From contig CM039003.1 in the NCBI GenBank assembly GCA_017499595.2, positions 62,001 to 126,000 of the forward strand: DNA of 64,000 bases, given 5' to 3'. The notes below the pieces were generated by a model, which did no database searches, was not told the DNA's origin, and saw nothing but the letters and a program-made list of their open reading frames with translations. This DNA comes from Psilocybe cubensis. Taxonomy: Eukaryota. Position numbers and translations under genes: made by a program. Shown in pieces: positions 9,913-33,832 of the stretch; the first letter of the stretch is position 1; every line of letters begins with the position of its first letter.

Positions 9913-10603
9913 CACGATTTTCCGTTGAAAATGCGAAGTGTCCGGCTTCACGATTTGGTCGCTACAAAAATAGCAAGACTAGAACTTTGATACGTACATT
10001 TATGTCAGGTTTCGTGATGAAGTACTTAGTCATTAGTACATACACCCTTGGTTGAACAACGTACTTTGGTGTGGTCGTACTGTGACCTAGGTATACATTG
10101 CTGTATCAAATGGTTTTCTTATCAATGATACAGTAATACCCGGTTTATATGAACCTATACCAAGTCCTGTTCACTTTCAAACAACTTTTGTCATTTTTTC
10201 TCAGATTTTTTTGTTTCCAACTTATCTTGGCTCCTTCTGCATCAAAATAATCTAAGTAAAGGTGCCGGAAACACCCACAGCAAGACAAAATATGCTTTGC
10301 CGTGATAGGCCGATATAAACTCAGTTAAATTTCAGATTATCTGGAAGAATTGCGCCCTTAACCATCTGTTGAAATAACTGCTTTACGGAAGACCATCTTT
10401 AGAGAGACCACCCTAGGATAATACCAACACGTACACCATTGGTTTTGATGAAACCACGACTTGACCACAGCTTTACCACGACACGAGTTTAAATTTACCA
10501 CGGTCTGTGCTAATTTTATCAGAATGTCATCCAATAGGCTGTTCGCACACTCAGAATGTAAGCACTACAACATAAAGAAAGGCCCAAAACTAGTGAGTAC
10601 AAC

Positions 10604-10789
10604 TGTAACGCGCGCCCTGAATATCCTAACATTTCAAATAGCATCGGCTGCCGCCGATGCCCTTATCATGCACAATTGTAGATAGGAGTAGGACAGTTCT
10701 TTTGTTTCGTACCTACTAGACACCAATATACGTTGGTCAGATTTAGTACGTGCGACTTGAGAATTCCAACCGTAAAGCGAGCCTTTACA
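10604..10789 (+). repeat. 5' LTR of element 1 (186 bp)
   Basis: TGTAACGCGC...GCCTTTACA; one mismatch seen versus the 3' LTR (T10677 vs C33670). Confidence 0.97.
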
Positions 10790-10876
10790 CTTTTTTAAAT
10801 CTACCATCTATATTGGCGATTAGCCAGAACCCCCAAACCGTTATCTTCACTACCCCTATTGCATCGTAACTGCGCG

Positions 10877-13774
10877 ATGGCATCCCCAGAACAATCCAAA
10901 GGGAACGACCTCCAAAAGGACGTACCTAGTGAAACCCGCATGGTGTTCAACAAAGAGACTATGACCTACGAAATGGTAAGAGCCACCCAAACAGGATCAA
11001 GTAACGAACCTGTCATGAACACCGACAAGGTGACGACGGAAACATTGAGCCAGATCGATAAGAACACCGTCGGGGAAACTGTACTACCCACTGAACCGAA
11101 TAAAGATGAGATGATTGAGGGATTGCAGAGGGAGATCGACGCACGACTGGAAACAGTATGGGAAATATACGGAGTAGATCGTATAGACAGGCAGATAGCG
11201 CTCCGTAATCGAGCCATCGATATAGTGGAGCAGGAAATGTCCCGAATTGGGGGCGTGAGCATCGAGAACTGGGGAATTGATAAATACGCGAGCGTGGTAG
11301 TGAAAACTACGTCACGAATGGCTGAGAGGTATGCAGACAGACCTCGATATCCATATATCAGCTCGATGGGCATACCTATCAGTCCCATCACTGAAATGAC
11401 TAACATACTTGAGATGCCCGTATCATCTCCACGCATTCGGCTACCCGAAAACGCGACTCTATACAAGTCGACAGCGGGAACTGGCATCAATACTAGTAAT
11501 ATTGATAGAGGTGTTGAATCTCAATCGTTAATTACTGAGCCACACGCACAGAGTATTCTACACCCAAACGTTACGCGACGAACAGAGTCGAGAGTGGCGA
11601 GGGCTGTAAACTGGAAAGATCGTGTGGCTTACCAAACGATGCGTAACGAAGCACTACGCACAACAGGACACTCTAATATTGACGACCAAGGTGTAGAGTT
11701 CGATGGTCATCGACCAAGAGAAGCACCATCCCCATCGTTAATACTAAAACAGGAAAATGTTGAGGAAGCGCCAACACACTTACCAAATGCGCCTGCTATA
11801 TTGCCTCGATCAAAACGGTCAACGGACCGAGACGAGAGCTATGCACGCGGTGGTTCATTGCCGCCACAACTTACCAATTATAGCGATTCGAGACGCGCAT
11901 CGCGAGGATACTCCATGCCAAGAGCAGTGGCAGCACGCGTGAAACCTGGAATACCAGAGGCCAATGAAGCGCACAAATCAGACATGCAGGATCGATTATC
12001 AAGATTGATTCACGAACTCTTGGGAACAAGGATAGAGTACCCTGATGGTTTCAAGTTCAATGCGAAGTTAGAAAGTGACAAGAGCACGAAATACTCTGGA
12101 TCCCCCAAATTCTCAGAGTTAGAGAATTGGCTATCGGATTTGTGCTCAAAAATGGCCGTTAGGCAACTCGGAGGTCCAAAAAATGACTTAATGCGTCGTA
12201 TGATTCTTCCGGAATACCTTGACGGAGACGCAAAGTTCTTCTACAATCACCATGTGGCCAACATAAACCGTCAGAAGAAGCATTGGACGTTTGAAGAGGT
12301 TATACTGGCCTTATACGAACGGTTTGTACACCCGACCTCGATGCAGGACGCCCGTGAGGCATTCCGAACGGCAACATTTAACCCCAAAAAAGGGGTACAG
12401 GCTTTCTATGACACGATATTGGAACACGCACAAAACATGTACAAATACCCCGACCAATATTCGATCCTGGAGGTATTTTTATCTGGCATACCCAGAGCCA
12501 TGAGATCACATCTGATAAGAAATGATGGCCTATCTCCTGAAGTAAACTCGGTGGACGAGTTTGTCGGATTAGCTAAACTCTACGAAGAGTGCCAAAAAAC
12601 CAATGCTTACTATCAACGGCATGGCCGTGACGTGAGCGGTGGATTAACAGACCGTTCTAACACAGTCAATAAACTAGCAAATAACGTTGCTAGACCACTA
12701 CGATTACGCTCGCGAGGGAAGATCATGGTCCTGCGATCCCAATTAACGGAAGCTAATAAAACAAATACAAAGGCGATTGAACCCACAGGCGCGGCCAAAA
12801 TAGTACCCAAGATGCAACCCACAACGGTAACCCAGGCAAAACCCAAGGGAAGTACCGGTAGGGCAGTTCAGTGCTATAACTGTGGCAAGGCAGGCCACTT
12901 TGCTAAAGAATGTGCTGAACCACGTAGAGAGCGGGTTCAATTAAGAGCTGCACACATGGCGGTACCTGAGGAAAATGATGATACTTTATCCAATATGGGG
13001 GACGATGAAGCTGACCCCGAAACGACTGATAACAACCATGCAGACGATGACCAGTACACAGAAGTTGAAGTGGTCGACAGCGACTGGTATGAGTCAGAAT
13101 CGCGCATTGACGATGAACAATGCCGAGCTATGACCGTGATTGCACCCAATCTCGAGCACAAGTACGTGGAGCTATTGGTACCTATAAATCCATTACAGGA
13201 TGGCACCATCGAAGACGAGACGCACGCAATGACAGAAATGCCAGAATCTCATGTAAGGGCAGAGGATCATGGTACGAAGATGAGGAAAGTCAAGCTACGC
13301 ACCTCAAGAAAGGAGCGCATGAGACCTACAGTTAAACCTGAGGACAAGGAATGTCTGGTTACCTATGTGAATGTGGCCGGAATGGACGCATGGACTTTGT
13401 GGGATTCCGGGAGTACGACTTCGGGTTTAACACCGTCATTTGCGCAGATAGCGGACATATCAGTGGACACACTAATTGATCCACATATCTTACAACTAGG
13501 GACGACAGGTAGTCGCTCGTCCATCAAGTATGGGGCCGATGTTCAGGTTAATATCGGAAATACATCCACATCCACGTACCTGGATATAATTAATATTGAC
13601 CGATATGACATGATCATCGGAACACCGTTTATGCGTAAGCATAAGGTAATTCTAGACTTTGATAAATCGGTAGTACGCATCAATGGCATGACATTACCTG
13701 CTATACGTGTCCCGAGAGACACTGATGGCCGACTGCGTCGTCAGAGAATGACGGATAAGCAAGAGGCCAACTGA
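10877..13774 (+). CDS. gag: Gag plus aspartic protease of element 1
   Basis: Capsid-like region, zinc knuckle CYNCGKAGHFAKEC, protease LWDSGS...YDMIIGTPF; ends in TGA in frame with pol. Confidence 0.93.
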   Translation: MASPEQSKGNDLQKDVPSETRMVFNKETMTYEMVRATQTGSSNEPVMNTDKVTTETLSQIDKNTVGETVLPTEPNKDEMIEGLQREIDARLETVWEIYGVDRIDRQIALRNRAIDIVEQEMSRIGGVSIENWGIDKYASVVVKTTSRMAERYADRPRYPYISSMGIPISPITEMTNILEMPVSSPRIRLPENATLYKSTAGTGINTSNIDRGVESQSLITEPHAQSILHPNVTRRTESRVARAVNWKDRVAYQTMRNEALRTTGHSNIDDQGVEFDGHRPREAPSPSLILKQENVEEAPTHLPNAPAILPRSKRSTDRDESYARGGSLPPQLTNYSDSRRASRGYSMPRAVAARVKPGIPEANEAHKSDMQDRLSRLIHELLGTRIEYPDGFKFNAKLESDKSTKYSGSPKFSELENWLSDLCSKMAVRQLGGPKNDLMRRMILPEYLDGDAKFFYNHHVANINRQKKHWTFEEVILALYERFVHPTSMQDAREAFRTATFNPKKGVQAFYDTILEHAQNMYKYPDQYSILEVFLSGIPRAMRSHLIRNDGLSPEVNSVDEFVGLAKLYEECQKTNAYYQRHGRDVSGGLTDRSNTVNKLANNVARPLRLRSRGKIMVLRSQLTEANKTNTKAIEPTGAAKIVPKMQPTTVTQAKPKGSTGRAVQCYNCGKAGHFAKECAEPRRERVQLRAAHMAVPEENDDTLSNMGDDEADPETTDNNHADDDQYTEVEVVDSDWYESESRIDDEQCRAMTVIAPNLEHKYVELLVPINPLQDGTIEDETHAMTEMPESHVRAEDHGTKMRKVKLRTSRKERMRPTVKPEDKECLVTYVNVAGMDAWTLWDSGSTTSGLTPSFAQIADISVDTLIDPHILQLGTTGSRSSIKYGADVQVNIGNTSTSTYLDIINIDRYDMIIGTPFMRKHKVILDFDKSVVRINGMTLPAIRVPRDTDGRLRRQRMTDKQEAN

Positions 13775-16168
13775 CTAACCGTGGATCATGGGCACAGTGC
13801 GAACCGAAAGCGCACAGAGGTAGAGGAAGTTGAAGATGCAGATAGACTTCGGGCAAACATAAACAGCCTACCTGAGGGGGATACAAGACTGCTTGTATCC
13901 GTGGATGAATACAAAGACCTTGGTAACAAGGAATCCAAACAGACTAAACAGCAACCCAGACCTCGGGATAATGAGCAAATCGCAAATAAGGAAGCAGACA
14001 AACCGCAGACAAAAATGACGGCGGAAAGACGCCAACCACAGAAAATTAATAAACAGAAATCAATTCAACCTGAGTATACGGGTTATGTCACTCACGACGG
14101 ACTATGGAGATGTGATTATCTCGATGATTCCATCATTGCAAATATAGACAGTGTAGAAAGTTACTGTCAGCCTACGTCATCTAAAGTGAAAACTGAGGAG
14201 TTAGTCACGGATGAAGACGATAAGATCATGATGGCCGAAACAGAGGCTGTTGATTGGACAAACCGTAAGAGATTTTGGGATAGGCCCACACCGCCACCTG
14301 AAATTGACTGGGTTTTTGACCCTCGGATGCCACAAGAGTGGAACGGTATGATGGAGTCGATGACCTCGAACTACTGGGCCAAACGATGGAGTCGGGTATC
14401 GACTACCCCTAGTGAGGTGTATAGACAACCCGAGCCATCCGAAATATCTCAACCGCACGTCATCCGGCTGGAGCCACCAGTGGTGCCAGTACAAATACAC
14501 TATGACGCATCTGAAATATCACTACAAAGTATACGTGAAGACCTCCAAAAACCAGTGAGATTAGCACGTATGGCAGCCGAACGCTACCCTGACAAGGGGA
14601 AGAAAAGGGAGGATGAATATAATAAGGATGATATACCTAAATTAAGACAGCAGTGGCACGACACTTACCAGGATGTAGTACAGGGAACTCGAAATGAACT
14701 CCCACCATTTCGTGAAGTCAATCACGAAATACACTTGATCGATGAATCAAAGAGATACACATATCATTTACCTAGATGCCCGTTGGCGTTACGCGGTGAA
14801 TTTTATAATAAGTTGAACCGCTACCTTGACGCCGGATGGTGGGAGGCAAGAGCTGCATCTCAAGCAGCACCACTAATGTGCATTCCTAAAAAAGATGGGA
14901 AGCTCAGAACTGTAGTCGATGCACGACAACGAAATGACAATACGATTAAGGACGTAACTCCACTCCCAGATCAGGAGATTATTCGTGAAGATGTCGCGCG
15001 GGCGAGATACAGGTCAAAAATTGACCTGGCTGATGCCTATGAACAAGTACGAGTGCGACCGGAAGATGTTTGGAAGACCGCATTCTCAACAATATCAGGG
15101 ACTTATGTGAGCAATGTGGTACAACAAGGAGATTGTAACGCACCCGCTACTTTTCAGCGGTTGATGACATGTATATTCCGAGACGCAATAGGAAGATTTC
15201 TACACGTCTACCTAGATGACATTTTTATATTCACCGACACAATTGAGGAGCACGAAAAAGCATTAAAATATGTTTTTGACAAACTGCGAAAAAACAAGCT
15301 ATACCTGAAATGGACCAAGTGCGAACTGTACGCAGAAAAAATAGACTGCTTGGGACATGTTATCGACGATGCGGGGATACACCCCGATGCTGACAAACTT
15401 GCTAGAATACGGGAGTGGAGAACACCCAGAAACTATAATGATATTCAGAGATTCGTGGGGCTGGTAAACTATGTTGGGGCATTCTTGCCGAACATTACCG
15501 CGTATACAGCCCCCTTGATGAACATGACACAGAATGGTGCACCGTTTTTCTGGCGGCCATTACACCAACGATGCTTCGACATGATAAAGAGAGTATGCTG
15601 TAAAACGCCGATTATACGGCCGATTAATCCTAAGGTTAACGAACCGATATGGGTGATTTGTGATGCCTCGAAGACAGGTGTTGGAGCCATGTATGGTCAG
15701 GGAACATCCTGGACAAAGTGCAGACCAGCGGGCTTCATGTCAAAGAAGTTTACTGATGCACAACAGCATTATGCAGTTCATGAGCTTGAGACGCTTGCCA
15801 TACTCGAGGCACTGATTAAATGGGAAGACAAATTAGTGGGCCAGAAGATACATATTATAACAGACCATAAAGCCCTTGAATTTTTCAAGACCCAGTCTAA
15901 TTTGTCCCACCGACAATGTAGGTGGATGGACTATATGGCGCGTTTTGACTTCGATATTACATATGTAAAAGGCGAATTTAACAAAGTTGCTGATTGTTTA
16001 TCGCGATATTATGAGAGTGACACGCCGTACGACGTACACAAAGTATACGATTACGTTCAGGCGGATGTGCGAATTGATCCCGACGGGGAAGACCTACCCA
16101 AAGAAAGGTCCCGTGAAGTCACTGAACTGCTCGTAGAAATACAAGCAATGCGTACTATTGAGCTACGT
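13775..16168 (+). CDS. pol: Pol segment 1 of element 1 (spacer, reverse transcriptase, RNase H), interrupted by element 2
   Basis: KIDLADAYEQ, QGDCNAPATFQ, VYLDD, ICDAS, ELETLAI, ITDHKAL, NKVADCLSR. Confidence 0.95.
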
Positions 16169-16769: not shown

Positions 16770-16827
16770 CCCCCTCTCGACTTTTAAATGTTGACGCCCT
16801 CGTCAACCACCCTATTTTCCCATTACC

Positions 16828-17736: not shown

Positions 17737-17965
17737 CGAGACTGTAGATATGTTTTGAAGTATTTTTGAATGGTGTCGAACGGTTGTATCTTCTGTGTTT
17801 GTTATGGTGTAGATAGGTTTTTTCATGATTGTAAGTTGTAGTGAAAATTTAAATGTAAAAGGAAAAGAGGAGGAGAAAACTGAAATTACGTGCGTGTGTG
17901 TGAGATGAGAGCACCTAGATATTGTTTTGCTGGTGCGTTGGACCTTGTGCTCGCGCCCCGTCTGA

Positions 17966-20900: not shown

Positions 20901-23386
20901 ATTACGACGGGTTCAAAGTAGTCACTCCTAAATTTCCCTTTCTCGGATTCATCCCATGCAAAGCCTGTTTCGTGCGCTTTAATCATATAGTGCACCAGTT
21001 TCTCCTCCTCTGGCCAGAGAAACCCATCCGGATTGACGTTCATAGCTTCCATTCTTTCCCGAGTGTATCGCGTTCCTGGCGCAAAATTGGGTGGGTGATG
21101 TGGTAGTGCGGGCATGCTAGATAGCGGGTCCTCGGGGATTCGTCGTGAAACCCGAAATTTTTCTGGCAGCGTTGTTGCTACTGGTTTAATGCGGTTTTCT
21201 ACCTTTTTATACGCGCATATTGCAACTTCGACAGCTTCTTGTAATATATCAGGCATATTGCCTTCCCATTTCACCTCCCACATGTCGTCGATATCGCTTT
21301 CTTCGTCTTGCGTGGGGCTATCGGTTTCGTCGCTGTCGCTTTCTTCATCATCTGTTGTCTCCACTTCTTCCAGTTCTGGTGGCTCGTCTTCGGGGCTATC
21401 TTGGTACCTGCAATGTTCTTCTACCCCAAAGAATCCCGTCAACACTTCATCGTCACTTTTAGACTCACCTCTCCTCGCATGAGTGGGCACCGTGATTTCC
21501 GCATTGGTGTTGGGGTCCTTCAACGTCAGGTGGGCTGATCCGTCTGCAAAGTGACTCATCACGGCCGTAGTGAGTGTGAGGAATGGTCTGCCCAGCAGCA
21601 TCTCGTATGGTGCGTTTTCCAGCACTTGCACTTGTAGATAGAAGTCGTAACCCCCTATGACTACCTTCATGTCATGTAGCAAACCATTCGTGTTGGCCGT
21701 TGTTGCATTAGCCGAGACCATCCTCATAAGATGATCTGATCGTAATGGTGCTCCCAGCTTCTCCCAGATGTCCTTCCTGACAGCAACAATCTGACATCCA
21801 TCGTCGAGTAGCGCTTCTGTAGTAATTTTTCCATCGAGCAGGAGGTCAATTCCCCGCAGATCTTCCACATGTTTAGCCACGATCAAACCATCTTTGCGGA
21901 CTGGAAGTGTTTTTCCACTCGCATGCAGGCCTTGGCTTGTTTTAACGTTAACATTGAAAGCCGCTCCCGTTGGCGTGACCCTTTTCGTTACGATTTTATC
22001 TTTGACTGCCTTTCGTATTTCAGGGGCAACTGCAAGGAGTTCCCTGGTGGTAAGAGTTACTGTAGCTTCCAGTCCTTTAGCCAACACAGCCTCCGTGATC
22101 GCCGTGTCTTCTATTGGTGATGAATATTTGTATTGTGGCCCCTGCTCTGGTTGCGAACTCGTGTTTGCTCCTTCGCTCGTCCTTTCCTTTTCCGCCATGC
22201 TTCTCGTGACAGGACCTGTGTGCTTCCCTCCCGAACTCACACCAAATTTTCGCCTTGTCTCGTCAATTTTCTTCTGCGTGCTCACAGCCAGGGTTTCCAG
22301 TAGTCGGAGTTCTTCCCTTTCCCTCTTTGTTGGTTCCCTTGTCTGTTCAATGGACTCCGTGTATATTTCTTCTATGTGCGCGTTTTGTGTTTCCTCGACC
22401 TGGACAACATTTGCCGAGACCGATGGCAGATTATTTGCACGCCAATTATCTATTTTCTCCTTCAAATTCTTCCCAGTGGACCCATAACTGTTTATTCTTG
22501 ACCCATCGGAAAGCGTGATTTGGTTGGAGCTGCTGTCGCGCTTACACCATCCGTTCTGCAGGTATTCTTGTAGTTTGAGGCACCTATTCATGTAGTGGGA
22601 TGGGTCGGAGCAGAACGTGCAGTCGTTTGACCTGGGCATTAGATGAGGCGGCGCCTGGCGGTTGAATCCTTCGTGCGTGCTTCCGTATCCTTGATTCATT
22701 CCTAATTTTTGCATTAACGCAAGCGTAATCCGATCCACCAGCTTGTCTTCGTCGATTCTGGGGCTAACCACTTCTTGTTTTACCGTTACCTTCTTAGGTT
22801 CTTCCACTGTTCCACCCCCACCGCCTTCTTTGGATAGCACAAATATAGCCGCATCGCATATTTCTTTCAACGTCCAGGGGTCGTCTGGGTGGTGTTGCGG
22901 ATTCTCGAGCCTGAGTTGTTCCCTTACTTCCCTCCGGAAATTGAGATGGAGGCCCTGGATGAAGTAGTTGCTTATTTCCCTGTCGGTGAGTCTTTGCTTT
23001 TTGACAAGAAAATTTGATATCTTTTTAAATTCTCTAAAGTATTCCCCGAATTTGTTTTGTGATTTCATACCCACGGTTGCGTTCTCTTCGGTGAGTATCT
23101 GTAGGTCGTGGACTGAGTATTTCCTGTCTCCAGCTGCTCCCGGGTACATTTCGACAACTTCTTTCTTAAATGTCGACCAATTTCCTTCCTGGGCTGATGG
23201 CAGGTCTTTCCACAAGTCATACTCTCCCGAAGGAATGTATCGCAATGCCCAGTCTATAATTGCTTGCTCATCGAGTTCGCAAGCCTCTCCCTGCCGGTGA
23301 ACTTCGTCTAGGAATCTAATGAGCGATTCTGGTTTGAGGTCAAATTTTGGTGCGGAGTGGTGACCGGGTGCTAGCATTTCGGGCAT
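17966..23386 (-). CDS. gag-pol: Gag-Pol polyprotein of element 2 (1806 aa, single ORF)
   Basis: CTFCSDPSHYMNRC knuckle, LLDDGCQ protease, FVDD RT, AVDSS RNase H, HDGLGH...CHEC and the integrase core; no chromodomain seen. Confidence 0.96.
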   Translation of the reverse strand: MPEMLAPGHHSAPKFDLKPESLIRFLDEVHRQGEACELDEQAIIDWALRYIPSGEYDLWKDLPSAQEGNWSTFKKEVVEMYPGAAGDRKYSVHDLQILTEENATVGMKSQNKFGEYFREFKKISNFLVKKQRLTDREISNYFIQGLHLNFRREVREQLRLENPQHHPDDPWTLKEICDAAIFVLSKEGGGGGTVEEPKKVTVKQEVVSPRIDEDKLVDRITLALMQKLGMNQGYGSTHEGFNRQAPPHLMPRSNDCTFCSDPSHYMNRCLKLQEYLQNGWCKRDSSSNQITLSDGSRINSYGSTGKNLKEKIDNWRANNLPSVSANVVQVEETQNAHIEEIYTESIEQTREPTKREREELRLLETLAVSTQKKIDETRRKFGVSSGGKHTGPVTRSMAEKERTSEGANTSSQPEQGPQYKYSSPIEDTAITEAVLAKGLEATVTLTTRELLAVAPEIRKAVKDKIVTKRVTPTGAAFNVNVKTSQGLHASGKTLPVRKDGLIVAKHVEDLRGIDLLLDGKITTEALLDDGCQIVAVRKDIWEKLGAPLRSDHLMRMVSANATTANTNGLLHDMKVVIGGYDFYLQVQVLENAPYEMLLGRPFLTLTTAVMSHFADGSAHLTLKDPNTNAEITVPTHARRGESKSDDEVLTGFFGVEEHCRYQDSPEDEPPELEEVETTDDEESDSDETDSPTQDEESDIDDMWEVKWEGNMPDILQEAVEVAICAYKKVENRIKPVATTLPEKFRVSRRIPEDPLSSMPALPHHPPNFAPGTRYTRERMEAMNVNPDGFLWPEEEKLVHYMIKAHETGFAWDESEKGKFRSDYFEPVVIPTVEHVPWVQKNIPIPPGIYDKVVAVLKDKLESGVIEPSSSSYRSPWFWVPKKDKNAIRIVHDLRMLNSVTIKDSGVPPVIEPYAESFGGKACYGMFDLFVGFDQRELAKESRDLTTFQSPLGTMRLTCIPMGYTNSMQIQHGDTTFLLQDEIPHVTIPFVDDIPVKGPNTRYEDGLGSYETIPENPGIRRFVWEHLQNVNRVIQRVRHAGGTFSGKKSTLCAPTAVIVGHECTYEGRRPLQSRVQKISDWPVCKTVSDVRGFLGTLGTIRMFIKDFAKHAKPLVELTKKDSEFVFEEEQLFAMNTLKMLAENCTAIKPIDYASENEVILAVDSSWKGVGWIISQKGDDGKLYPCRYGSRTFNDREQRYSQAKLELFGAFVALMQARVYIIGVKKLVLEVDAKYIKGMLNNPDIVPNAAVNRWIAGIQLFDFELRHVPGKDHSAADGLSRRGLGDNEVDDDKDVEDWIDEACGFAVEAINAMGAYNLPPKPSPNNEILPSTASGNKLNDVWGMALLAWSDNFPRTTQAEKRDQELDIIASFLRSPLTFASSMNPGEQKRFIRRASDFFVKDNKLWKKDANGRHKLVVPIDKRQDIVRQAHDGLGHKGFFSVRTRLLERFWWPHMDDDVRWYLRTCHECQTRQLAKIRIPPTVATPRGLFRKMYVDTMLMPKAGGFRYIVHGRCSLTSYPEWAKLKAENARTIGEFLFTQVLCRWGALEELVTDNAPQYIAAAEYLADKYGIHHIKISPYNSRAQGIIERRHFDVREAIMKAAEGVESRWPEVAPAAFWAERVTIQKSTGYSPFFLAHGVEPLLPFDLAECTYLAPGGDQMSTTDLVAQRAKMLMKREDDLETVKDKIVTARWKAIENKEREHRIAPIDFNFQPGALVLVRNSKDDKELGSKTKPRYMGPMVVVRRTKMGSYILAEVDGTLSRLRYAAFRLFPYYPRSKHAIPITKLIEEDESFLDSMEGKEDGDEEQ

Positions 23387-23670
23387 CGTTTTTCGTGGTG
23401 TTTGTTTTGCGCTATTTGAGTTCTGACTCTGATTATTGGTTCGCGATGTGGCTCGAGTAATTCTTCGGTTGCTGTTACTGTTGGTTACTATACTCCAGTC
23501 GACGGGTACAAAACGTGGCGGCGTGTATGATGAATCTGACGAGCTTGAGTTGTCTGTGTCTGAGTCTGTAGTCTCCGAGCCGAAAAATTCGTTGCACGAT
23601 CTGTAGTCCGAAATTCTTGATGCTGAGTTATCCAGTTGGCCTTAGTGTGTCTGTGCTTTCACTGGTCTGA

Positions 23671-23688
23671 CCCTCGCGGTGGGCTCCA
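23671..23688 (-). promoter_or_regulatory. tRNA primer-binding site of element 2
   Basis: Minus-strand TGGAGCCCACCGCGAGGG starts 2 nt after the 5' LTR. It is complementary to a tRNA ending ...GGUGGGCUCCA; tRNA-Thr is a guess. Confidence 0.8.
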
Positions 23689-23690
23689 GT

Positions 23691-24291
23691 TGTAAGTTTT
23701 TCTTTTGATGTGTGCAAGAAAACGGAGTTTCTTGAGTAAGGTGCAGACAAGTCGTCGTGCACGCAGGGTCAGATAGTGAGTACAGACGTGTATGGGCAAG
23801 TTTGGATTCGGACTGATTCTCTTCTATCTTGCGGCGGCTTCTTTACTTGCGTACTGCGATTTTAGATACAAATAACGCGATGACTTCGGAGCGGATACGA
23901 TAATCCAAGCTCAACGACTGAGTACGAGTAGCTTTCGAGATTTCGAGTGAGTAAATTGACTGCCTCTATCTGGTTTACATAGCTTCTTTATATACTGTTT
24001 CTTTCTGTAAATTTTCTTTAATAAAATTTTTCTTCCCATCCCGTCCTCGTTGGCTAAACCTCGTACCGTCCCGCTATCCGATGTGCTCCTACTTGCTCCT
24101 GCGTCTTCAGAGCATTTCTCGCGCCATCTCCTAAGTCCACTCCGCGTGACGCTTCCGGTGCCGAGCTTCCGCTGCCGCCATCCCGATCCTTGGCGTCTTG
24201 GCTTTGTTGGACTTAGCAAATTTACCGGTTCTGAGACTTGTTGTTCGTCATTCTGACACTTTCCGTGTCCACCCCGTCTCATGTCTCCACA
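23691..24291 (-). repeat. 5' LTR of element 2
   Basis: TG...CA termini; direct repeat of 16169-16769. Confidence 0.96.
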
Positions 24292-24295
24292 ACGT

Positions 24296-25027
24296 CGCAG
24301 CCAGCGGCTGCGCGAACGGCAGGAAGAGCGTGATGTTGAGGCACGGCTCCTCAAGGAAGGGGGGGGAGAGCCTGTTGTTCAGGACCACAAATCAAATAGT
24401 AAAAATATAACATTAGAAGAATCTATCCATCGGGATGGAACCAATGAGGAGTTACCGATCAGTACAACAGACGACTTTATGGACAATATACGCACCGGGT
24501 ACAATCAGGACAAGATGTTTTCTGAAGTACTGAACCAGCCGGAACGCTTCAATCGCTTCTCGATAAGCGATGGTATAATATGGTATAGTGCACCCGGGGA
24601 AGAAAAGGTTATTGGAGTACCTCGAGTACGTGAACTAATCACTAACCTGGTGCAGGAAGCACATAAGTGTGTCGGGCACTTTGCTACCCAAAAAACGCTG
24701 AGTTACTTGCGGCGATGGTACTGGTGGCCCCATATGGCAAAGGACGTGGAATCCTTTTGCAAGACCTGCGAAGCGTGTCAACGAGCAAAAGTTATAAATA
24801 ATAAACCAGCGGGAAAACTTCACAGTTTACCCATACCCACTAAACCCTGGGACTCAATAGGGATGGACTTTATAGGTCCATTCCCCGAGGTCAGAGGGTA
24901 TAACTATGTCTGGGTGATCATATGCCACATGACGAGTATGGTACATTTAATACCTGTTAACACAAAGATGACAGCTAATCAATTATCATGGGTGTACATG
25001 AGAGAAATTGTTCGATTACATGGCTTA
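24296..25027 (+). CDS. pol: Pol segment 2 of element 1 (integrase zinc-binding domain and start of core)
   Basis: AHKCVGH...CKTCEAC, PWDSIGMDF, EIVRLHGL; in frame with segments 1 and 3 once the insertions are removed. Confidence 0.93.
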
Positions 25028-25126
25028 CTTGTTTTAGTAGGCCACCGCGGAGCGTGGCATGACAAGTCTTTACAATTCAGCGTCACGCTTTGTAATAATA
25101 TAATATATATATAATATAATATAAAT

Positions 25127-26101
25127 ATGTCCAACTTTGACGTGGATATCGGTGCAATGGACGAAGTGATATTCAGACTCCAAGGCATAGTTAGCGACAA
25201 GATGCTACCACCAATGGCAAAGCCTGCTTCGTACGTCCACTCCATTGAGGTGAATTAATTACAAATGAGGACTGTTACAGCCGCGACAGAACGGTCAAGC
25301 AACAACCATATTTACGTACCGCCATTGCTATCACGGGACTCGGAGACATTGTGTTCAATAAGGTGATGGAAAAGCTAGAAGAAGTTTTCCTCCATTTTGC
25401 AAACAATTTTCCCGCGGACAGCGTCAGCGGCTATGACCCAGTTCTTCACAAAGACATGGGTTTCAATGTTTTCCATGCGCATAGCCAATATTTCACGAAG
25501 GTATCCGCATATCAAGACAAATCTGACAACATAGGTTTTCATCCCCTGGTCGACCCTGATAACGTGTTGGCGTCCATGGTAGGGGACAGTTTCATCCACG
25601 CAATCGATAACAAGGTACAGTTTCTTCGTCGGGAGATACTTCCTGACGGAACAGCCAGGTATGTTTAGAAAATACCAACAACACATCACAACCAAACTAA
25701 TATCATGTTTTTACAGATATTATTCTTATAATCCTGCCTCCATACAAATTGGAGACATTGTCGAGATCAGTGTTGCCTTTGTCGCATTTCCTGCCCAAGG
25801 AAACAAGTACAAATTTGTTGTTGCTCTTTGCGGAATACTTGTCTTGGACCAGGAGGCAAGAAAGGTAAGCAATGTTACATTGAACAGTCTCATAGCCATT
25901 CATAACTTCCAACAGAAAGCTGATATTCTCAGAATGCGGTCGCGCTATACTCCAGCAAAAAGACAGGTTGCTGTTTTGTGTAGGACAAAGAGGCAGCTGT
26001 ACAAAGGTCAGATTGACATTGAAGACACGCAACAGAGGATGGCATGTATGCGCTTAAATGAGGACACAGTCCACAATAGCAATACTATGTCCCAAGATTA
26101 A
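25127..26101 (+). CDS. Cargo gene A, 4 exons, hypothetical protein with OB-fold-like C-terminal pattern
   Basis: Introns ~25231-25289, 25659-25716 and 25865-25915 splice in frame; motifs VDPDNVL, DNKVQF, IQIGDIVEISVAFVAF...YKFVVALCGILVLD. Confidence 0.75.
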
Positions 26102-26246
26102 TACATATGTACATAGAAAGACAAGGATATTATAAATGTGCTGAACGAACAATCAATCCATTTGCGTGAACATTGTAAATAACAAGGAATAATTTGTCAA
26201 GTCATTTTCATGACAGAAATTATCTGAAGGTGTTAGTTGGCACCCC

Positions 26247-26426
26247 ATGGGAGAATCCTGCGTACACTGTATGCAGAATATTCCCACACTTGGCTGAATA
26301 TCGGCGAGGAAGTCCGTGGGAGAATTCTGCGTACACTGTACGCAGAATATTCCCACACTCGGCTGAATATCGGGAGAGGTTGACCGTGGGAATATTCTGC
26401 GTACACTGTACGCAGGATATTCCCAC
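26247..26426. repeat. Three tandem ~41-bp palindromes at ~70-bp period
   Basis: GTGGGAATATTCTGCGTACA-C-TGTACGCAG(A/G)ATATTCCCAC variants at 26247, 26316 and 26386 with similar linkers. Confidence 0.9.
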
Positions 26427-26507
26427 GCTCATCCGCAAGTCAAACTTACAAATTAAGACAAAAAGAATGAGGACGAGAACACAAGTTTATTTCGAACAAA
26501 AATTTGA

Positions 26508-29478
26508 CTAAGGATGGAAGAAATTACAAATATCCATTCCACAAGAGGCTTTGTGGTTGAGGGCGATGCAACCAAAAAAATCTGCCTTTCTGGATAGCAA
26601 ATACAAAACAGTTGCATGTACACGGTCATCTTTTTGCCTACATTACAGGAATTAAATTGACAAATACTAAAACTAAAGAGCACACACCTTATACCCCTTT
26701 CCCAGGATTTGATAGCTTTTTTGACACGCTTGTGTAATTGGTAAACATCTGCCGCTGTGTAGTGAAAATCTAATGCGATACCGCTGATGCGACGGACACC
26801 AAAATGCAAACAATCAAATTCATTGAGCAACAATACCCACGAATTGGCTTCAACAAAGGAAGTCTGATTTGCTTTGGGTAAAAGAGGCAAAGAATAAACC
26901 CAACAATGCCTGTCGCCAACCCGTCTAATCCCAGGAGAGAACAACTCTGGATAAGGATCGTAATCCAGCACAACGAGAACATGACCACGAGATGAACTAT
27001 ACCCAACATTTACGTTGTCCCTGATAGACTGTATCCTGCTTTGGATATGGCGGTCCATTTTCAAAGTTTGCGATGGAATGGAAAGAACAAATTTCAAGCC
27101 ACGGGAATGATATTTTGCAAGAAATTTTTGCGCGCGCTTGAGGTCGGCAGAAGGTTGCAACAGAGAGACTTGATGTCCAAAGGTAGCATTTGGATACAAG
27201 CTGTACACCTTCTCAAAGGTAACAAAATTCATGACGCCGGCTGTAGTAGAACAAAATTGAAGTTAACATTGTTTTGACACATGACATTAGGGACATACTG
27301 CTATGATACCCCAAAATGCACTCTACCACCGATTGACAAGTCGTAATCAGTTGGACAAAAGAACCTTGGCACCATAGGTTAACGACCACTCCAGTGGTAT
27401 TGTAATGTCGATGAAGAGGATGTTTCTGAAGGACGATTTTTTCCATTTTCAAAATTTTTTCCGCTGTGGTGTTGTCCGGATATTTGGGATGCGGCATGAT
27501 AGTAAATCCAATGGACATCATCCAGGAAAGAACGGGAAGAGCATATCTGTGCTCGACATACATGTCCATGTCACCCGGAATCCATATATTAGCACGATTG
27601 ATTACGAAACTTTATGTAAGTAAAGCGAGTTCTTTTATCCCCACAACCCACTGTACAAAAATATGTCCTTGCCAATTGTCCCCATCAGTAAATCATTGAT
27701 GCCATCAAAATTGCGTGATTAATACCGGTTTTTTACTTAACCGGTATGCTTGACTTAATAATTGGTTACTATCATAGAATTTCTGTTAGTTTTTGTTCCT
27801 ACCAAGGGGATATGGAAATTAAAATACTAGATATTAGCTAGGTAGATAGGTTAGCTGCCATATGGTAGAAAACAAAATTAGATACCATTACATTATGACT
27901 TTTTAATTGCAAGTTAAACATTTTGACACAGATAATCATCGCTCATAACCAAAAATTTTATAATAATGATCTTATTCAACTGATTTAAGGCCATTAATTA
28001 GTCACAATCAATTACATACCAACTGTTTTGCATGCTTTATACACCTCTAACGGCAAGTAGAGGTAAATAGAATGCTTTATTGTTATCAAAAAAAATTTAG
28101 CATGAATGACTAGCAGACTATGGTGGCATAGAATAAAGAATAATAAACATTATGTATCTAGCTATTATCTTTAATGCCACTTCAAATAACTTGTCATATT
28201 AAACTTGTTGTGCTGTTCATACTGGCCATGAATTAATAAGCAGACTGTGGGAATAACTTGCATATAGTGTATGCAAGTTATTCTCACGGTTGCCGCACTT
28301 TGCATTGAGCAACTTGAACTTCTCTGGTAATTCCTGATATATTACTGAGATGCATTGCATATACTTTAGGTAAAATACAAGTATTTTTGGCAATAATAAT
28401 TATTTTCAGTCCTAGTTTAGATGATCTTATTATATTTTACTTGCTGTGGTGTTTGTACTGGCCATGAATTAATAAGCAGGTCATGGGAATATCCTGCGCA
28501 CACTGTACGCAGGATATTCCCACGGTTACTACACTCAATTTGCATTGAGCACTGGCCACTTTGGTCAAGAGATGGTCATTTTGAATAATGTTTTCCATGC
28601 ATTGAATGTATTTTGGGGAAGAAATAATGCACTAACACTTGCAAATTATGCTTGAAATATGTTTCCACACAGCCAATTGTGTTCACAGCAACATCAAACT
28701 ATGCCAAAAAGAAATATGCGCACCAAACAAATGTTTTTGCACACAATATTGTTTCACTCTTGATGCACTTTTCAAAAATAAGAAAATTATATTTATGGGA
28801 AATATGTCCCCACTTGGGCAGCCATACACATGAGCATTCTTCCATCAGTTTTCCATACGGGATTCTCCCAGCAGATCTGGAATTCTTCAATATTTAGCAG
28901 GTATGAAAATTATAATAGACAAGTTCTTCCTTACAATTAGGCCTTATAACCTGTGCAGCTATTTTTTGTGTCTGACACAACTAAGCTTGTAGTAGACCTA
29001 AGTCATAGTAATTAATCATAACCTTGCCCAGTATCTGGCTGTGCATTCAGAACATATTAATATATATTAACTATGTTATATAAATCTAGATTAAAAAATA
29101 TTTTATACAATTGTGAGATGTAAAGTCTTGTCATGCCACGCTTTGCGTTGGACCACTAAAACAAGTAAAATGCAAAACGGTGGAACCTGAAATAACCAGG
29201 CCAGTCTTGAACTGGAGAAGACGAAACAGCAAATGTTCATTGGGTTTGAAGATAGGAGCAAATAAATTTTTGGGACGGAAGGCGCGGCGCATATAGCCCG
29301 AAACGCGGTCGTTTAGCTCCTTGCAAGTCCAAAAGAAACGGTAGAGGGTTTTCAGATCCATCTGATCCATGTACACATCGTCCATGGGAGGCGGAAAGAC
29401 TCTAAAAAATAAGTAATAACCAAATGAGATAAAACAGTGAACATACTGTTGGAAACGGGGGGATAACGCGGAAGCCAT
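26508..29478 (-). pseudogene. Cargo gene B: F-box-like N-terminus plus nucleotidyltransferase-like motif, disrupted by element 4
   Basis: MDLKTLYRFFWTCKEL; TGLVISGSTVLHF|INRANIWIPGDMDMYV is restored in frame after removing 27602-29165; QLITT...ILGYHS, MNFVT...YSLYP; GT-AG introns. Confidence 0.75.
27602..29165 (+). mobile_element. Non-coding element 4, same terminal family as element 3, opposite orientation
   Basis: About 110 bp at the 5' end matches the reverse complement of 30040-30148, and about 47 bp at the 3' end matches the reverse complement of 25028-25074. No TSD; target GA|TAA; carries the same palindromes at 28247 and 28483. Confidence 0.85.
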
Positions 29479-30148
29479 GGGTAAAACAGTGCGGAGAAAA
29501 GTGCATTGTCTATACTACGTCAATAAATATATTAACCATAAGCCGATAGACGCCCGACGTAGGGGAAGAACAAATTGGTATGCGTGAGAAACGATCATGA
29601 ATCAGAAAATCAAATTCAAATAGTACAGAATGCCCAGAACCCAAGAATGCGTAATTATTTCTATTTGAACTCTGATTGATGAAGCTACCGATATCAAGGA
29701 ACGTGTGTGCCTGCACAGTTCTATTTCCAACCTTTCAGACCCATAGTTCAAAGTGTGCATTTGTTCCATCTCTAAGTATTAGTACAATATATAAGCACGT
29801 TGGCTAGACGGTTCCACATGGTTTTAAAAATTAAACAACAACGCAAAAAAGTGAATTGAGTAGGACTATTGTTGTTGGGTATAATTAATTTTATGGAAAC
29901 GCACATTCACATTGCGATCAAAACAAATCAAAAACAACCTTTAAAGTAACAATGGTAAAAAGAAGTCGTAGAATGAATTGGAAAGGGGTTGCTTAGGGGG
30001 TCCGGTGACCGCTTAAGGAAAATACCGATAGCGGTAACAACATTGATCGCATCAATAATATTTTGATGGGGACAATTGGCGAGGACATTTTTGCTCGCTG
30101 GATTGTGGGGATAAAAGAACTCATCTTTACTTACGTAAAGACTCGTAA

Positions 30149-31066
30149 CCTTCATCAATTGTAAGCGATCGCGACTCTAAATTCACGTCTCAGTGGTGGC
30201 GCGAGCTTCACAAGCTATTAGGAGCAAAGTTGTTGATGTCCACCTCGTTTCATCCTCAAACGGATGGCCAAACTGAACGAGTAAACTGCAGCGTGGGACA
30301 GATACTACGCGCGATCATACGACCTGATCAGAAAGATTGGATTGAAAAGCTAGACATGACAGAATTTGCTATCAATGCAAGTATATCAGATACAACTGGA
30401 TACGCACCGTTTGAACTCAACGGTGGATATATGCCATCAATGTTGAGGGAAATTCGTGCTAATGACTTTGTATCAAAAGGGATACGTGCTTTTGCAGAAG
30501 CAGCACTGTACAATCTAGCCGAAGCTCATGATGCAATTATTGAGTCCAGAGTCATTCAAACAAAAATTGCTAACCGTAAACGGAGTGATGAGGCCGAGTT
30601 AAAAAAGGGATCATTAGTGTACCTATCCACTAAGAATCTCAACTTGCCCAAAAACCGTGCACGGAAACTGTGCCCCAAGTTTATTGGACCCTATAAAATT
30701 CTAGAATGTAGACCCGAGTCGTCAACATATACACTGGAATTACCCACGGCACTTACAATGCGTCGTATACATCCAACCTTCCATGTGTCATTACTAAAAC
30801 CATACTATGCATCGAGTGACGCATTGTTTCCCAATCGCGCACAACCTGAGCCATATGACTTTGGGGCGCCAGATGATCACGAATGGTTTGTCGATGAGAT
30901 TCTAGGGCATCGATGGGTCAATAAATCGCTCGAATTTGAAGTCCGATGGTCCTTAGGTGACACTACCTGGGAACCACTCACAGTATGTAAAGATTTGGAG
31001 GCTTTAGACAGATACTTACAGTTAATGGGCGTTAAGCGCCCTTCATCATTACCCAAGCGGCATTAA
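30149..31066 (+). CDS. pol: Pol segment 3 of element 1 (integrase core end, GPY motif, chromodomain)
   Basis: IVSDRD, HPQTDGQTERVN, PKFIGPY, IHPTFHVSLLK, EWFVDEILGHR...FEVRWSLGDTTWEP. Confidence 0.95.
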   Translation, partial: PSSIVSDRDSKFTSQWWRELHKLLGAKLLMSTSFHPQTDGQTERVNCSVGQILRAIIRPDQKDWIEKLDMTEFAINASISDTTGYAPFELNGGYMPSMLREIRANDFVSKGIRAFAEAALYNLAEAHDAIIESRVIQTKIANRKRSDEAELKKGSLVYLSTKNLNLPKNRARKLCPKFIGPYKILECRPESSTYTLELPTALTMRRIHPTFHVSLLKPYYASSDALFPNRAQPEPYDFGAPDDHEWFVDEILGHRWVNKSLEFEVRWSLGDTTWEPLTVCKDLEALDRYLQLMGVKRPSSLPKRH

Positions 31067-31300
31067 TGTTTGCTTGAATGTGGTGCCTGGCAATAGTTAA
31101 TATTGCAGTGATGAGATGGGAGCTTGGCGACACAGTAATTGCCTTGTTTGGAATAACTCATGTCGGGGCTCTAAATTGGGAAACTCAGGCGCCTCCATCA
31201 ATAAACAAACCTACCAAGGGGATTGAGGTGAAATTTCACCTGCACCCGTTATCTTTGATCCATCTACTCTACCATCGATTAATTTATATTGACACTCATC

Positions 31301-33553
31301 ATGCAATCGCACTTCCTTCGAGGACGACCGCAATATCACAGCAATAGAGGACATCTTGGTAGTTCTCGTGGCAACTATCACCCCGGATTGAGAGGGGGCG
31401 CACGAACGACGTACACACCGCCGTGGGCTAATAAGGGTACACCAACCTTAATACCCGGGAGGACCCCAGCTGGGGGGCCGCAGTCGCAGAATCTTAATAA
31501 TCACCCAGACGCAGGTGTGCATCACATAAATAACCTGCCAGTGCAGGACCAGAACAATAACACAGACAACATAGCATTGCCTACAGGTCAAGCAACCGTC
31601 ATCAGCGAACATTACAAGGAGTACGCTGCGACCATACGAGACTCGCTCGTCCACTATGGCATACAGGAGGGCCTGGCCGATGCAATCATAACCGAGCAAA
31701 TGTTTCTCCTTGCTACAGAACTCCTATATCGACTTCAAAACTTGGAAGCGGAGAATAAGAGACTTAACAATAATCTGGTGGCATATGGACGCATAACCAA
31801 GAGAGGAGCTACTGAAGGCATCGAGGAAAGTGATAATCGGCCCCTGAAGAAAGCAACGACAAGCGCAAATCATAGCGCTGTCACTATTAACAACATTCCC
31901 GGATCCACATTACGCGAACCGGAGATTTGTGAGCAGGTGCCAGACATGGTGTCAGGAATAACTATCCCTGGACCGCGACACCCCGCGCCAAAGCTCAAAC
32001 GCGACCCGTCGAGGGACCACCCCAATCCCATAGGGTATCGCACAGAAGATGAAGACTCAGACGATGGAGATGAAGCACCAGGGCCAGATGAGTTGTTGAA
32101 GCGTCAAGCCAACCGGCAGCTCGACTTTGACATGTACTCCGGCCGCATAGACAATGTGTGGGGAGTGGTCTTACATCCTCAACTGTCCCCACAGCGCCAT
32201 AACGCCCTGCGCAACACTCTACCACGCCATACATGGTACTCCAACCGCAGCAACTCTGTTTTCACCGGAAATACCGCGGTGGCCGCCATGCAGTGGGAAC
32301 AAACTCACGATAACGCATATAATCCATACAAGAATCCCCTGTACGCCGTAGCGCCTCGAGGAGTACCCAGAAATCCTCTGGAAGTCAAAGGCCTTATTCA
32401 AATCACGCAGGACGAGACGTACGAATCATGGGTACGAATCGAAGCCTATGTGTTATTGCGCACCTTACAGAATGCTGCCGCCATGAGTGTACCCCAAGTT
32501 CACGACCGGGCAATGCAGCATCTGGATAAGATGCCAATGGAGGATTTCACTCCGAACGTCAAAGAGGAGGACTGGAACGAAATATTGTTACCGCACGACT
32601 TTGACAGACTCCGTAACCGATACAGTGCTCACAAAAACAACCAGGGCATGGGTGTCCCCCTACCCTCGCGAGAACAATCTCTCAACGTCGACGATCTCGC
32701 GCTGTTTGTTTTGATGCACGCGAGACTGGGAAGTGTATCCCCGTTTCATGGGGTAGCGGTAAAGTTGTCGTTGGAAGTCGATCGTCGTTCGACCTTTGGA
32801 CAAGGGCTAGTGCGAATGATTGGACCCGTGGACAAAGCAGCACGACCTACCTTCACCAAACTGTTCGCTGCATTGGTTTCGCACGCCCATCGGTATCGGG
32901 AGGCTATTGATGTATATAACAATCAGCACCCGGATAGCCCATTCCACCCACAGGACGGTCCATTATATTCATTTACGAGGTCAACGCTCGGCCTAGAGGA
33001 AATCAAAAACCTCGGCGTCGAGCATGTTGTGGAAGTGTTGATTAGAAACCGCATCCCGGTGGCGTGGATTGACCACGCCTACCCGTTTGGGTACCATTAC
33101 TTGAACGCACGCATTACTCAGCCTATCCCCAACTCACATCCCCTCGCTGTGTATGACGACGAAAGACTGCGACGCCTTGATATGTTCGGCGTACCCCCTG
33201 CCATCCCCGAATGGGATGGGTGGAGACAACCGTCCGATGACGACCGACTCCGACTTTATGTTATTATGAGCCTCGAGGAGAAGGCAAATCCCAATACCCC
33301 AGGATTCAACCATTACACGTGGTTGCGCATTGGCGAACCACTGACTCAGAGATTTCTGGCTTTCCGCGATCAATCGACTATTAACACTCAGGCCACTGAG
33401 GCGCCTACAGACATGGCTTCGACAGCCATGATGCGCGATGACGACGACGAGATGGCCGATGCTCAGGAGGAGGAATCGGCTCAACGAATGGACGAGGACG
33501 TCCCGACTGAGGGAATTGCGCGACTAACGCTTAAGAAGGTTAACTCAATCTAA
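31301..33553 (+). CDS. Extra ORF3 of element 1 (about 750 aa), unknown function
   Basis: Uninterrupted sense ORF between the pol stop and the PPT/3' LTR; RG-rich N-terminus, short coiled-coil, acidic tail; no obvious signal peptide or TM segment. Confidence 0.85.
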   Translation: MQSHFLRGRPQYHSNRGHLGSSRGNYHPGLRGGARTTYTPPWANKGTPTLIPGRTPAGGPQSQNLNNHPDAGVHHINNLPVQDQNNNTDNIALPTGQATVISEHYKEYAATIRDSLVHYGIQEGLADAIITEQMFLLATELLYRLQNLEAENKRLNNNLVAYGRITKRGATEGIEESDNRPLKKATTSANHSAVTINNIPGSTLREPEICEQVPDMVSGITIPGPRHPAPKLKRDPSRDHPNPIGYRTEDEDSDDGDEAPGPDELLKRQANRQLDFDMYSGRIDNVWGVVLHPQLSPQRHNALRNTLPRHTWYSNRSNSVFTGNTAVAAMQWEQTHDNAYNPYKNPLYAVAPRGVPRNPLEVKGLIQITQDETYESWVRIEAYVLLRTLQNAAAMSVPQVHDRAMQHLDKMPMEDFTPNVKEEDWNEILLPHDFDRLRNRYSAHKNNQGMGVPLPSREQSLNVDDLALFVLMHARLGSVSPFHGVAVKLSLEVDRRSTFGQGLVRMIGPVDKAARPTFTKLFAALVSHAHRYREAIDVYNNQHPDSPFHPQDGPLYSFTRSTLGLEEIKNLGVEHVVEVLIRNRIPVAWIDHAYPFGYHYLNARITQPIPNSHPLAVYDDERLRRLDMFGVPPAIPEWDGWRQPSDDDRLRLYVIMSLEEKANPNTPGFNHYTWLRIGEPLTQRFLAFRDQSTINTQATEAPTDMASTAMMRDDDDEMADAQEEESAQRMDEDVPTEGIARLTLKKVNSI

Positions 33554-33596
33554 ACTAACACTGTTTAAGATCAGTAAATGATCTCAAGGGGGGGTG

Positions 33597-33782
33597 TGTA
33601 ACGCGCGCCCTGAATATCCTAACATTTCAAATAGCATCGGCTGCCGCCGATGCCCTTATCATGCACAATCGTAGATAGGAGTAGGACAGTTCTTTTGTTT
33701 CGTACCTACTAGACACCAATATACGTTGGTCAGATTTAGTACGTGCGACTTGAGAATTCCAACCGTAAAGCGAGCCTTTACA
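33597..33782 (+). repeat. 3' LTR of element 1
   Basis: Repeat of 10604-10789, preceded by the purine tract AAGGGGGGG. Confidence 0.97.
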
Positions 33783-33832
33783 ACAACTCTATTTCTCAAT
33801 GTTTGCTTTTTCAACGGAAAATCGTGTCATAG

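Follow-up and report, generated by a model that had tools for sequence, protein, structure and literature searches.

Extra genes of long terminal repeat (LTR) retrotransposons are, to our knowledge, known from plants, nematodes and rotifers, almost none of them with a function, and they have barely been noted in fungi. Extra open reading frames (ORFs) are also known in bdelloid elements. The present work concerns a third ORF, ORF3, carried by a Ty3/Gypsy element of Psilocybe cubensis. The element lies in a 64,000-nucleotide stretch of contig CM039003.1 (assembly GCA_017499595.2, positions 62,001 to 126,000 of the forward strand). The whole of this stretch is called the window, and all positions are counted from its first letter. 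An earlier note, made from the letters alone, had pointed to an intact extra ORF in the position of an envelope (env) gene and had proposed a maintained accessory protein. The results make it very likely that ORF3 is a genuine, element-borne and selected accessory third gene of one Ty3/Gypsy chromodomain-type lineage in mushroom-forming fungi.

In Cer1, a Gypsy/Ty3 retrotransposon of Caenorhabditis elegans, the genomic RNA depends on CERV for its export (PMC10309623). CERV and ORF3 both occur in Gypsy-type elements, with animals as hosts in one case and fungi in the other. The mRNA of CERV is spliced and has exons in common with gag, and the role of the protein was established by genetics (PMC10309623), whereas ORF3 is known here from sequence and models. 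ORF3 agrees with a CERV-like export factor on one point, its position between the pol stop and the polypurine tract (PPT) and LTR combined with its hydropathy. Plant LTR retrotransposons carry additional ORFs beside gag and pol, which are lineage-specific and mostly of unknown function (PMC7264820). These belong to another kingdom and have no known homology to ORF3, and the ORF3 family differs in having a confident model of unmatched fold and measured ratios of nonsynonymous to synonymous substitution (dN/dS).

Among full-length fungal Gypsy elements, some were drawn by Novikova et al. 2010 with an "additional ORF with unknown function", and the element lengths given in that survey run from 4.4 to more than 13 kb (PMC2864245). 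The carrier elements, the position and the product of that ORF are not stated in the available text, and it can therefore not be told whether it belongs to the same family as ORF3. In the earlier note, the gene content of canonical chromoviruses was given as gag and pol alone, which is broadly right, but an extra ORF had already been drawn for these fungal Gypsy elements (PMC2864245). In the available part of Muszewska et al. 2011 such an ORF is not mentioned. An additional gene, brtn, is found in Boty/BcGypsy1 of Botrytis cinerea and is antisense according to a cited title (PMC8365987). As described, it differs from ORF3 in being antisense and in an ascomycete host, whereas ORF3 is a sense ORF of 750 codons in Agaricales. 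The env genes of retroviruses and errantiviruses are characterized by a signal peptide and a membrane anchor, and ORF3 has neither. A full-text literature search, with subscription journals outside its coverage, found no printed description of the ORF3 family. LTR retrotransposons with an extra ORF are a known kind of element; no earlier description seems to exist of the ORF3 family itself, of how broad it is, of the selection on it or of its unmatched fold.

The ORF3 frame, its product and its relatives

ORF3 was found in a plus-strand frame at 31283-33553, which runs for 756 codons without a stop. Counted from its first ATG, at 31301, ORF3 has 750 codons, with the stop at 33551-33553 (31301..33553). 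At the base composition of the window, the chance of a stop-free run of 756 codons is about 7e-19. The ATG lies 234 nt past the pol stop TAA (31064-31066), and a purine run, AAGGGGGGG (33586-33594), begins 32 nt beyond the end of ORF3 and adjoins the 3' LTR at 33597. The stop-free sense ORF of about 750 residues described in the earlier note was thus recovered. Its proposed position between the chromodomain and the PPT held for the pol stop upstream and the PPT and 3' LTR downstream; the chromodomain itself was found only as a sub-threshold match at the C-terminal end of the integrase (Chromo PF00385, E 4.4e-5, 23.8 bits compared to a Pfam cut-off of 25.1). ORF3 is open, as the word "intact" of the earlier note implied; this copy of the host element is not intact, its pol being interrupted twice. 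ORF3 is present in one copy in the window. Its GC content is 0.49-0.53, compared to 0.44-0.49 for gag-pol. Of 11 sequences inspected, 10 had a G fraction of 0.10-0.20 in the last 80 nt before the ATG.

The predicted protein begins with a disordered head rich in arginine and glycine (residues 1-100, 31301..31600), with 7 R, 13 G, an isoelectric point (pI) of 10.9 and a predicted local distance difference test (pLDDT) score of 30-40. It is followed by a modelled helical hairpin (residues 101-165, 31601..31795; helices 103-118, 123-129 and 135-163, pLDDT 83-95), which is conserved in A2, an alignment of nine full-length members. The segment LLYRLQNLEAENKRLNNNL falls within the long, heptad-like helix 135-163. 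A linker (residues 166-255, 31796..32065), delimited by alignment, model and composition, contains RPLKK, with the consensus RPxKK in the nine-sequence alignment, a conserved PG..P.P....DP strand and an acidic run. The conserved core domain (residues 256-702, 32066..33406) is predicted to be mostly helical, and an acidic, disordered tail (residues 703-750, 33407..33550; pI 4.1, 14 D+E of 48 residues, pLDDT below 50 from residue 710) completes the protein. One architecture is common to all nine members of A2. The head is variable, and the PG..P.P....DP segment of the linker is invariant and is accompanied by acidic and basic runs. RG-rich heads were seen in five further loci (L001, L003, L006, L007 and L013) of the metagenome set described below. 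The RGG-like N-terminus, the heptad segment and the basic patch of the earlier note were all borne out, and its globular region of about 400 residues corresponds to the modelled core of 447 residues.

A Kyte-Doolittle scan of ORF3 detected neither a membrane segment nor a signal-like head, which agrees with the earlier note. The highest 19-residue mean was 1.17, and the first 30 residues had a mean of -1.32; the usual cut-off for a membrane segment is about 1.6. A single cysteine is found among the 756 residues of the frame.

An AlphaFold2 model of the whole of ORF3, built from 89 sequences, had a pLDDT of 78.4 and a predicted template modelling (pTM) score of 0.69, with disorder at residues 1-100, 166-200 and 710-750. 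The core alone (447 residues, 108 sequences) was modelled with a pLDDT of 94.3 and a pTM of 0.90 as a mostly helical domain with few short strands. Fold searches covered PDB and BFVD. Foldseek gave no match in PDB (best E 0.29 for the whole model and 0.2 for the core), the BFVD search of the whole model gave no match (best E 0.009 at a template modelling score of 0.08), and VIA-align gave no match to the core (best Z 3.8). The ESM Atlas returned no usable match to the whole of ORF3, and for the core only low-recognition matches (up to 0.90) to unrelated bacterial clusters. A sequence profile search of PDB gave a best E of 0.033, within low-complexity parts. The modelled core is thus without a detectable relative in PDB or BFVD; as the 447 residues exceed the 400 advised for the tool and two databases were covered, this does not prove that it has no known fold. 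In the core, 62 positions are conserved at 80% or more, chiefly G, P, W, Y and L. About ten conserved positions are polar (R299, N301, N318, D402, N583, H592, Y594, D619, R622 and R625), the near-invariant ones being N318 (99%), Y594 (99%), D402 (97%), N301 (96%), H592 (95%) and D619 (89%).

Relatives in 269 clusters were recovered by an exhaustive HMMER search of proteins at E<=1e-3, 176 of the clusters at 1e-10 or below and 60 at 1e-30 or below. The part shared among relatives spans residues 270-710, approximately. Pfam gave no family above threshold for ORF3 and 36 relatives; one of the 36 (P0014) had a sub-threshold Retrotrans_gag match, outside the shared core. A copy of Gag or capsid was considered as an origin of ORF3 and rejected, as hhalign of the family profile to the element's own gag-protease gave a probability of 0.1 and no Pfam family was found. 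A word-indexed protein search returned only P0002 (99% identical), P0003 (a 67% paralogue) and P0038 of Arthromyces matolae, and the profile query A1 added nothing.

P0002 and P0003 are deposited as hypothetical proteins of Psilocybe cubensis. P0002 is the deposited gene model of the ORF3 locus and has 741 residues; it matches the ORF apart from nine residues (GVHHINNLP) that were taken out as a 27-nt intron, which may be an artefact of prediction. The deposited annotation thus presents a gene of the element as a hypothetical protein of the host. For annotation in general, ORFs of this type are being deposited as host proteins, the two Psilocybe cubensis entries being examples.

Genomic context, selection and co-inheritance

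Metagenome contigs were scanned with the nine-sequence alignment, which resulted in 61 ORF3 loci, and these were searched with the gag-protease, reverse transcriptase-RNase H, integrase and ORF3 sequences of the window. The C-terminal part of the same integrase was found upstream on the same strand in 15 of the 17 loci with 2 kb or more of sequence preceding the core, and opposite-strand pol matches were absent from the ORF3 loci. The end of the integrase was 1057-1698 nt from the ORF3 core in all 17 loci with an upstream integrase match. From the pol stop to the opening of the ORF3 frame the distance was 91-156 nt in seven loci, compared to 234 nt in the window. Two longer distances were set aside, one because of a stop inside the integrase frame of L013 and one because of an apparent break in the ORF3 head of L024. 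Downstream, the PPT and LTR start were window-like in L001 and L002 and similar in L007, and the next gag followed after ORF3 in L010 and L027. Three contigs, those of L001, L011 and L027, are self-closing, and their periods of 10.2-10.6 kb match the length of the window element minus its insertions. Location of the homologues 3' of a Gypsy pol, which the earlier note had named as a check, was therefore confirmed in 15 of 17 informative loci.

Identity to the window across loci was 59-78% for the integrase and 27-38% for ORF3. Complete ORF3 frames in a single match were found in 10 loci (611-991 codons), and four more frames were open to the end of the contig.

Two other loci had divergent arrangements. 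At L031 (165-2456) a match to reverse transcriptase and RNase H passes straight into the ORF3 core, and this locus is an internally deleted derivative. At L046 (2003-2449) a short ORF3 fragment lies beside an opposite-strand gene of 1264 codons with TPR repeats.

Selection was estimated in three pairs of loci by the NG86 and YN00 methods. The dN/dS values for ORF3 were 0.10/0.14 (NG86/YN00) for L001-L003 (766 codons), 0.12/0.16 for L006-L013 (861 codons) and 0.23/0.29 for L011-L012 (977 codons), and these values are rough because dS was 0.87-1.46, near saturation. The C-terminal part of the integrase gave 0.030/0.030 for L001-L003 and 0.028/0.039 for L011-L012; the integrase frame of L013 has a stop, and no integrase value was obtained for that pair. 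The first 40% of ORF3 was less constrained than the remainder, with dN/dS of 0.21 vs 0.05 in L001-L003 and of 0.09 vs 0.065 and 0.17 vs 0.09 in the other two pairs.

Quick maximum-likelihood trees of integrase and ORF3 from 11 elements agreed in the groupings of the window with (L001,L003), and in (L006,L013), (L009,L026) and (L011,L012). Branches of the ORF3 tree were several times longer than those of the integrase tree, with 1.61 compared to 0.24 for the end branch of the window. The deeper forks of the two trees differed or were weak, and the long ORF3 branch of the window was hard to place. ORF3 is inherited together with the integrase of its element, is old within the lineage and is under purifying selection, and its sequence changes several-fold faster than that of pol.

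The proposal of a maintained accessory protein is upheld by the 269 clusters, the upstream integrase in 15 of 17 loci, the matching tree groupings and dN/dS of 0.10-0.29 in all three pairs. The earlier note had also asked whether the ORF is absent or broken in relatives or is a recent capture from the host; many related elements were found to carry it as an open frame, and nothing pointed to a recent capture. Several observations weigh against reading ORF3 as a genuine, selected third gene or against the function proposed below. Besides the roughness of the dN/dS values, two of the 17 informative loci (L017 and L044) lack an upstream integrase, both of them decayed and with nothing recognisable upstream, and in 46 of the 61 loci the ORF3 frame is shorter than 600 codons, owing to decay or to short contigs. 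The pol of the window copy is broken, and the ORF3 of this copy can therefore at most act in trans. Conservation in the core falls mostly on structural residues, which would fit a scaffold and does not point to a ligand. Pfam and PDB profile searches of ORF3 turned up no RNA-binding domain of a recognised type, no nuclear export signal and no enzyme motif. Taxon names are known for just three of the proteins, and the host range of the family is for this reason only inferred.

As a large, selected protein with relatives in hundreds of clusters and a confidently modelled domain without a structural relative, ORF3 is a good target for structural and functional studies. In genomes of Agaricomycetes it can also serve to mark one lineage of elements.

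Proposed function and rival explanations

By analogy with CERV of Cer1, it is tentatively proposed that ORF3 is an accessory factor that binds the RNA of its element. The protein would be made from its own short mRNA with a start in the G-poor spacer between pol and ORF3, which seems likelier than the splicing out of about 9 kb; an intron of about 9 kb is unusual for a fungus. None of the sequencing runs recorded as RNA contained the stretch, and X4, a run presumed to be RNA, yielded nothing; this speaks neither for nor against expression. The Arg/Gly head could bind the genomic RNA of the element, and the core could serve as a binding scaffold. The ORF3 protein might in this way aid a step outside gag and pol, such as the nuclear export, protection or packaging of unspliced RNA. 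On a wider scale, it is possible, and suggested here with reserve, that one widespread chromovirus lineage of mushrooms is a "complex" retrotransposon, in which an accessory protein of novel fold acts on the element's own RNA or disarms silencing, as an independent fungal counterpart of the Rev-type factors of retroviruses and of CERV. If ORF3 does handle element RNA or counter silencing, fungal retrotransposons have also evolved virus-like accessory regulation.

A more doubtful explanation is that ORF3 is not a replication factor but a counter-defence protein, which would blunt host silencing by RNA interference or quelling, DNA methylation or heterochromatin. The rate of change of ORF3 is what such a role would lead one to expect. 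On the same branches it changes about 6-7 times faster than the integrase (1.61 vs 0.24 on the end branch of the window), its dN/dS is 3-8 times that of the integrase, and the head and linker vary most, as seen from the first 40% of the protein in L001-L003 (0.21 vs 0.05). Fast change of this kind is usual in proteins at conflict with the host. However, quick change is also expected of any lineage-specific, partly disordered protein, and every dN/dS value is well under 1. Furthermore, no likeness to known silencing suppressors was detected in the Pfam, PDB profile or fold searches.

It is unlikely that the core is an enzyme of new fold, acting for example on nucleic acid or nucleotides and needed for reverse transcription or integration. 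There is a precedent in the dUTPase acquired by fungal Gypsy elements (PMC2864245), and the large, compact core, modelled with very high confidence, and its few near-invariant polar residues (N318, D402, N301, H592, Y594 and D619) would be compatible with a catalytic role. Against this, no enzyme family was matched in the Pfam, PDB profile and fold searches, and most of the conserved positions are structural residues.

That this element alone recently captured a host gene, or that the frame is open by chance in a young copy, is highly improbable. The LTRs are 99% identical, and because the copy is young the open frame alone says little; GC content is also slightly higher in ORF3 than in gag-pol. 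Yet homologues with 27-38% identity occupy the same place in elements with 59-78% identical integrases, the terminal groupings of the integrase tree recur in the ORF3 tree, dN/dS lies at 0.10-0.29, the probability of a chance frame is about 7e-19, and neither a poly(A) tail nor a second set of repeats was found around ORF3.

An envelope-like or movement protein for passage between cells or hyphae is just as improbable, since the env position and the heptad-like helix of the hairpin are set against the lack of a signal peptide and of any membrane-spanning segment (maximum 19-residue mean 1.17), a single cysteine and, as a weak negative, no class I, II or III fusion-protein fold among the listed Foldseek PDB, BFVD and VIA-align matches. 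On the models and calculations, ORF3 is not an envelope protein because it has no membrane segment, and the earlier note was right to set it apart from a classical envelope.

The host element and other features of the window

The Ty3/Gypsy element that hosts ORF3 spans 10604-33782 on the plus strand. Both features expected of an LTR retrotransposon were found, a 5-bp target-site duplication, ACAAC, on both sides (10599..10603 and 33783-33787) and two LTRs of 186 nt. The 5' LTR (10604..10789, TG...CA) and the 3' LTR (33597..33782) form direct repeat D3 and are 99% identical. Pfam matches follow the Ty3/Gypsy order of gag(CCHC), protease, reverse transcriptase (RT), RNase H and integrase. The gag-protease ORF, 991 codons from stop to stop (10799..13774), contains zf-CCHC (residues 691-706) and RVP_2 (residues 851-959). 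The pol frame consists of three parts. Part 1 (13778..16164) encodes RT and RNase H (RVT_1 and RT_RNaseH), part 2 (24292..25026) the zinc-binding part of the integrase (Integrase_H2C2), and part 3 (30148..31066, including the TAA stop) the C-terminal integrase with SH3_Tf2-1 (E 8.9e-16) and the chromo-like end. The spacer between pol and ORF3 is located at 31067..31300, with a G fraction of 0.12 in its final 80 nt. The PPT and its junction are at 33586..33596, and the same GATCTCAAGGGGGG(A/G)TGTGTAACG is found 3' of ORF3 in L001 and L002. A primer-binding site starting with TGG was not seen right after the 5' LTR (10790-10830); the first TGGCGA occurs about 25 nt downstream.

A single in-frame stop separates gag-protease from RT-RNase H-integrase, in the window a TGA followed by CTA (13775..13777). 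The stop follows a conserved R[HR]R.T[DE]K motif, and its position at the boundary of protease and RT is common to the window and all seven loci with both parts (L001, L009, L010, L011, L013, L027 and L047). From the sequence, this arrangement looks like programmed stop-codon readthrough with the protease in the upstream frame.

The two interruptions of pol are a nested LTR element at about 16165-24291 and a high-copy repeat block of 5.1 kb at about 25027-30147. In DNA contigs from three runs of one study (X1-X3), 16164 is directly followed by 24292 and 25026 by 30148; these contigs bridge both insertions, and the uninterrupted element therefore exists as DNA. By coordinate arithmetic on these joints, the pol frame is continuous over both. 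In X1 the uninterrupted element was a single contig of 9775 nt closing on itself. ORF3 is nearly identical in the uninterrupted copies of all three runs. The window differs from the X1 contig by 5 letters over 30148-33782, which covers ORF3 and its flanks, and from the X2 and X3 contigs by 9 and 21 letters, respectively, from 30148 to 33626.

The nested element is of Gypsy type and lies on the minus strand. Its LTRs are identical over 300 nt, and its gag-pol frame of 1891 codons contains DUF4100, protease, RT, RNase H and integrase. It had no or almost no cover in X1 and X2, and a depth of 27.8 compared to 80 for the outer element in X3. Judged by this cover, it inserted recently, and copies or strains differ in having it.

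The repeat block lies inside the integrase, is AT-rich (GC 0.35-0.43) and has a depth 10-30 times that of the outer element. Terminal-type inverted repeats were found at 25025-25079/29114-29168 and at 27602-27713/30038-30148, together with palindromic subrepeats of 40-60 nt. Five ORFs are present, none with a Pfam family in the Pfam scan. Nested non-autonomous DNA transposons probably make up the block.

Outside the element, a GC-rich region (0.55-0.57) at 60150-61840 has an AT skew of 0.58 and about 20 overlapping direct repeats spaced in multiples of three. The repeats are located within a frame of 549 codons, and the region is probably a repetitive, low-complexity coding region.

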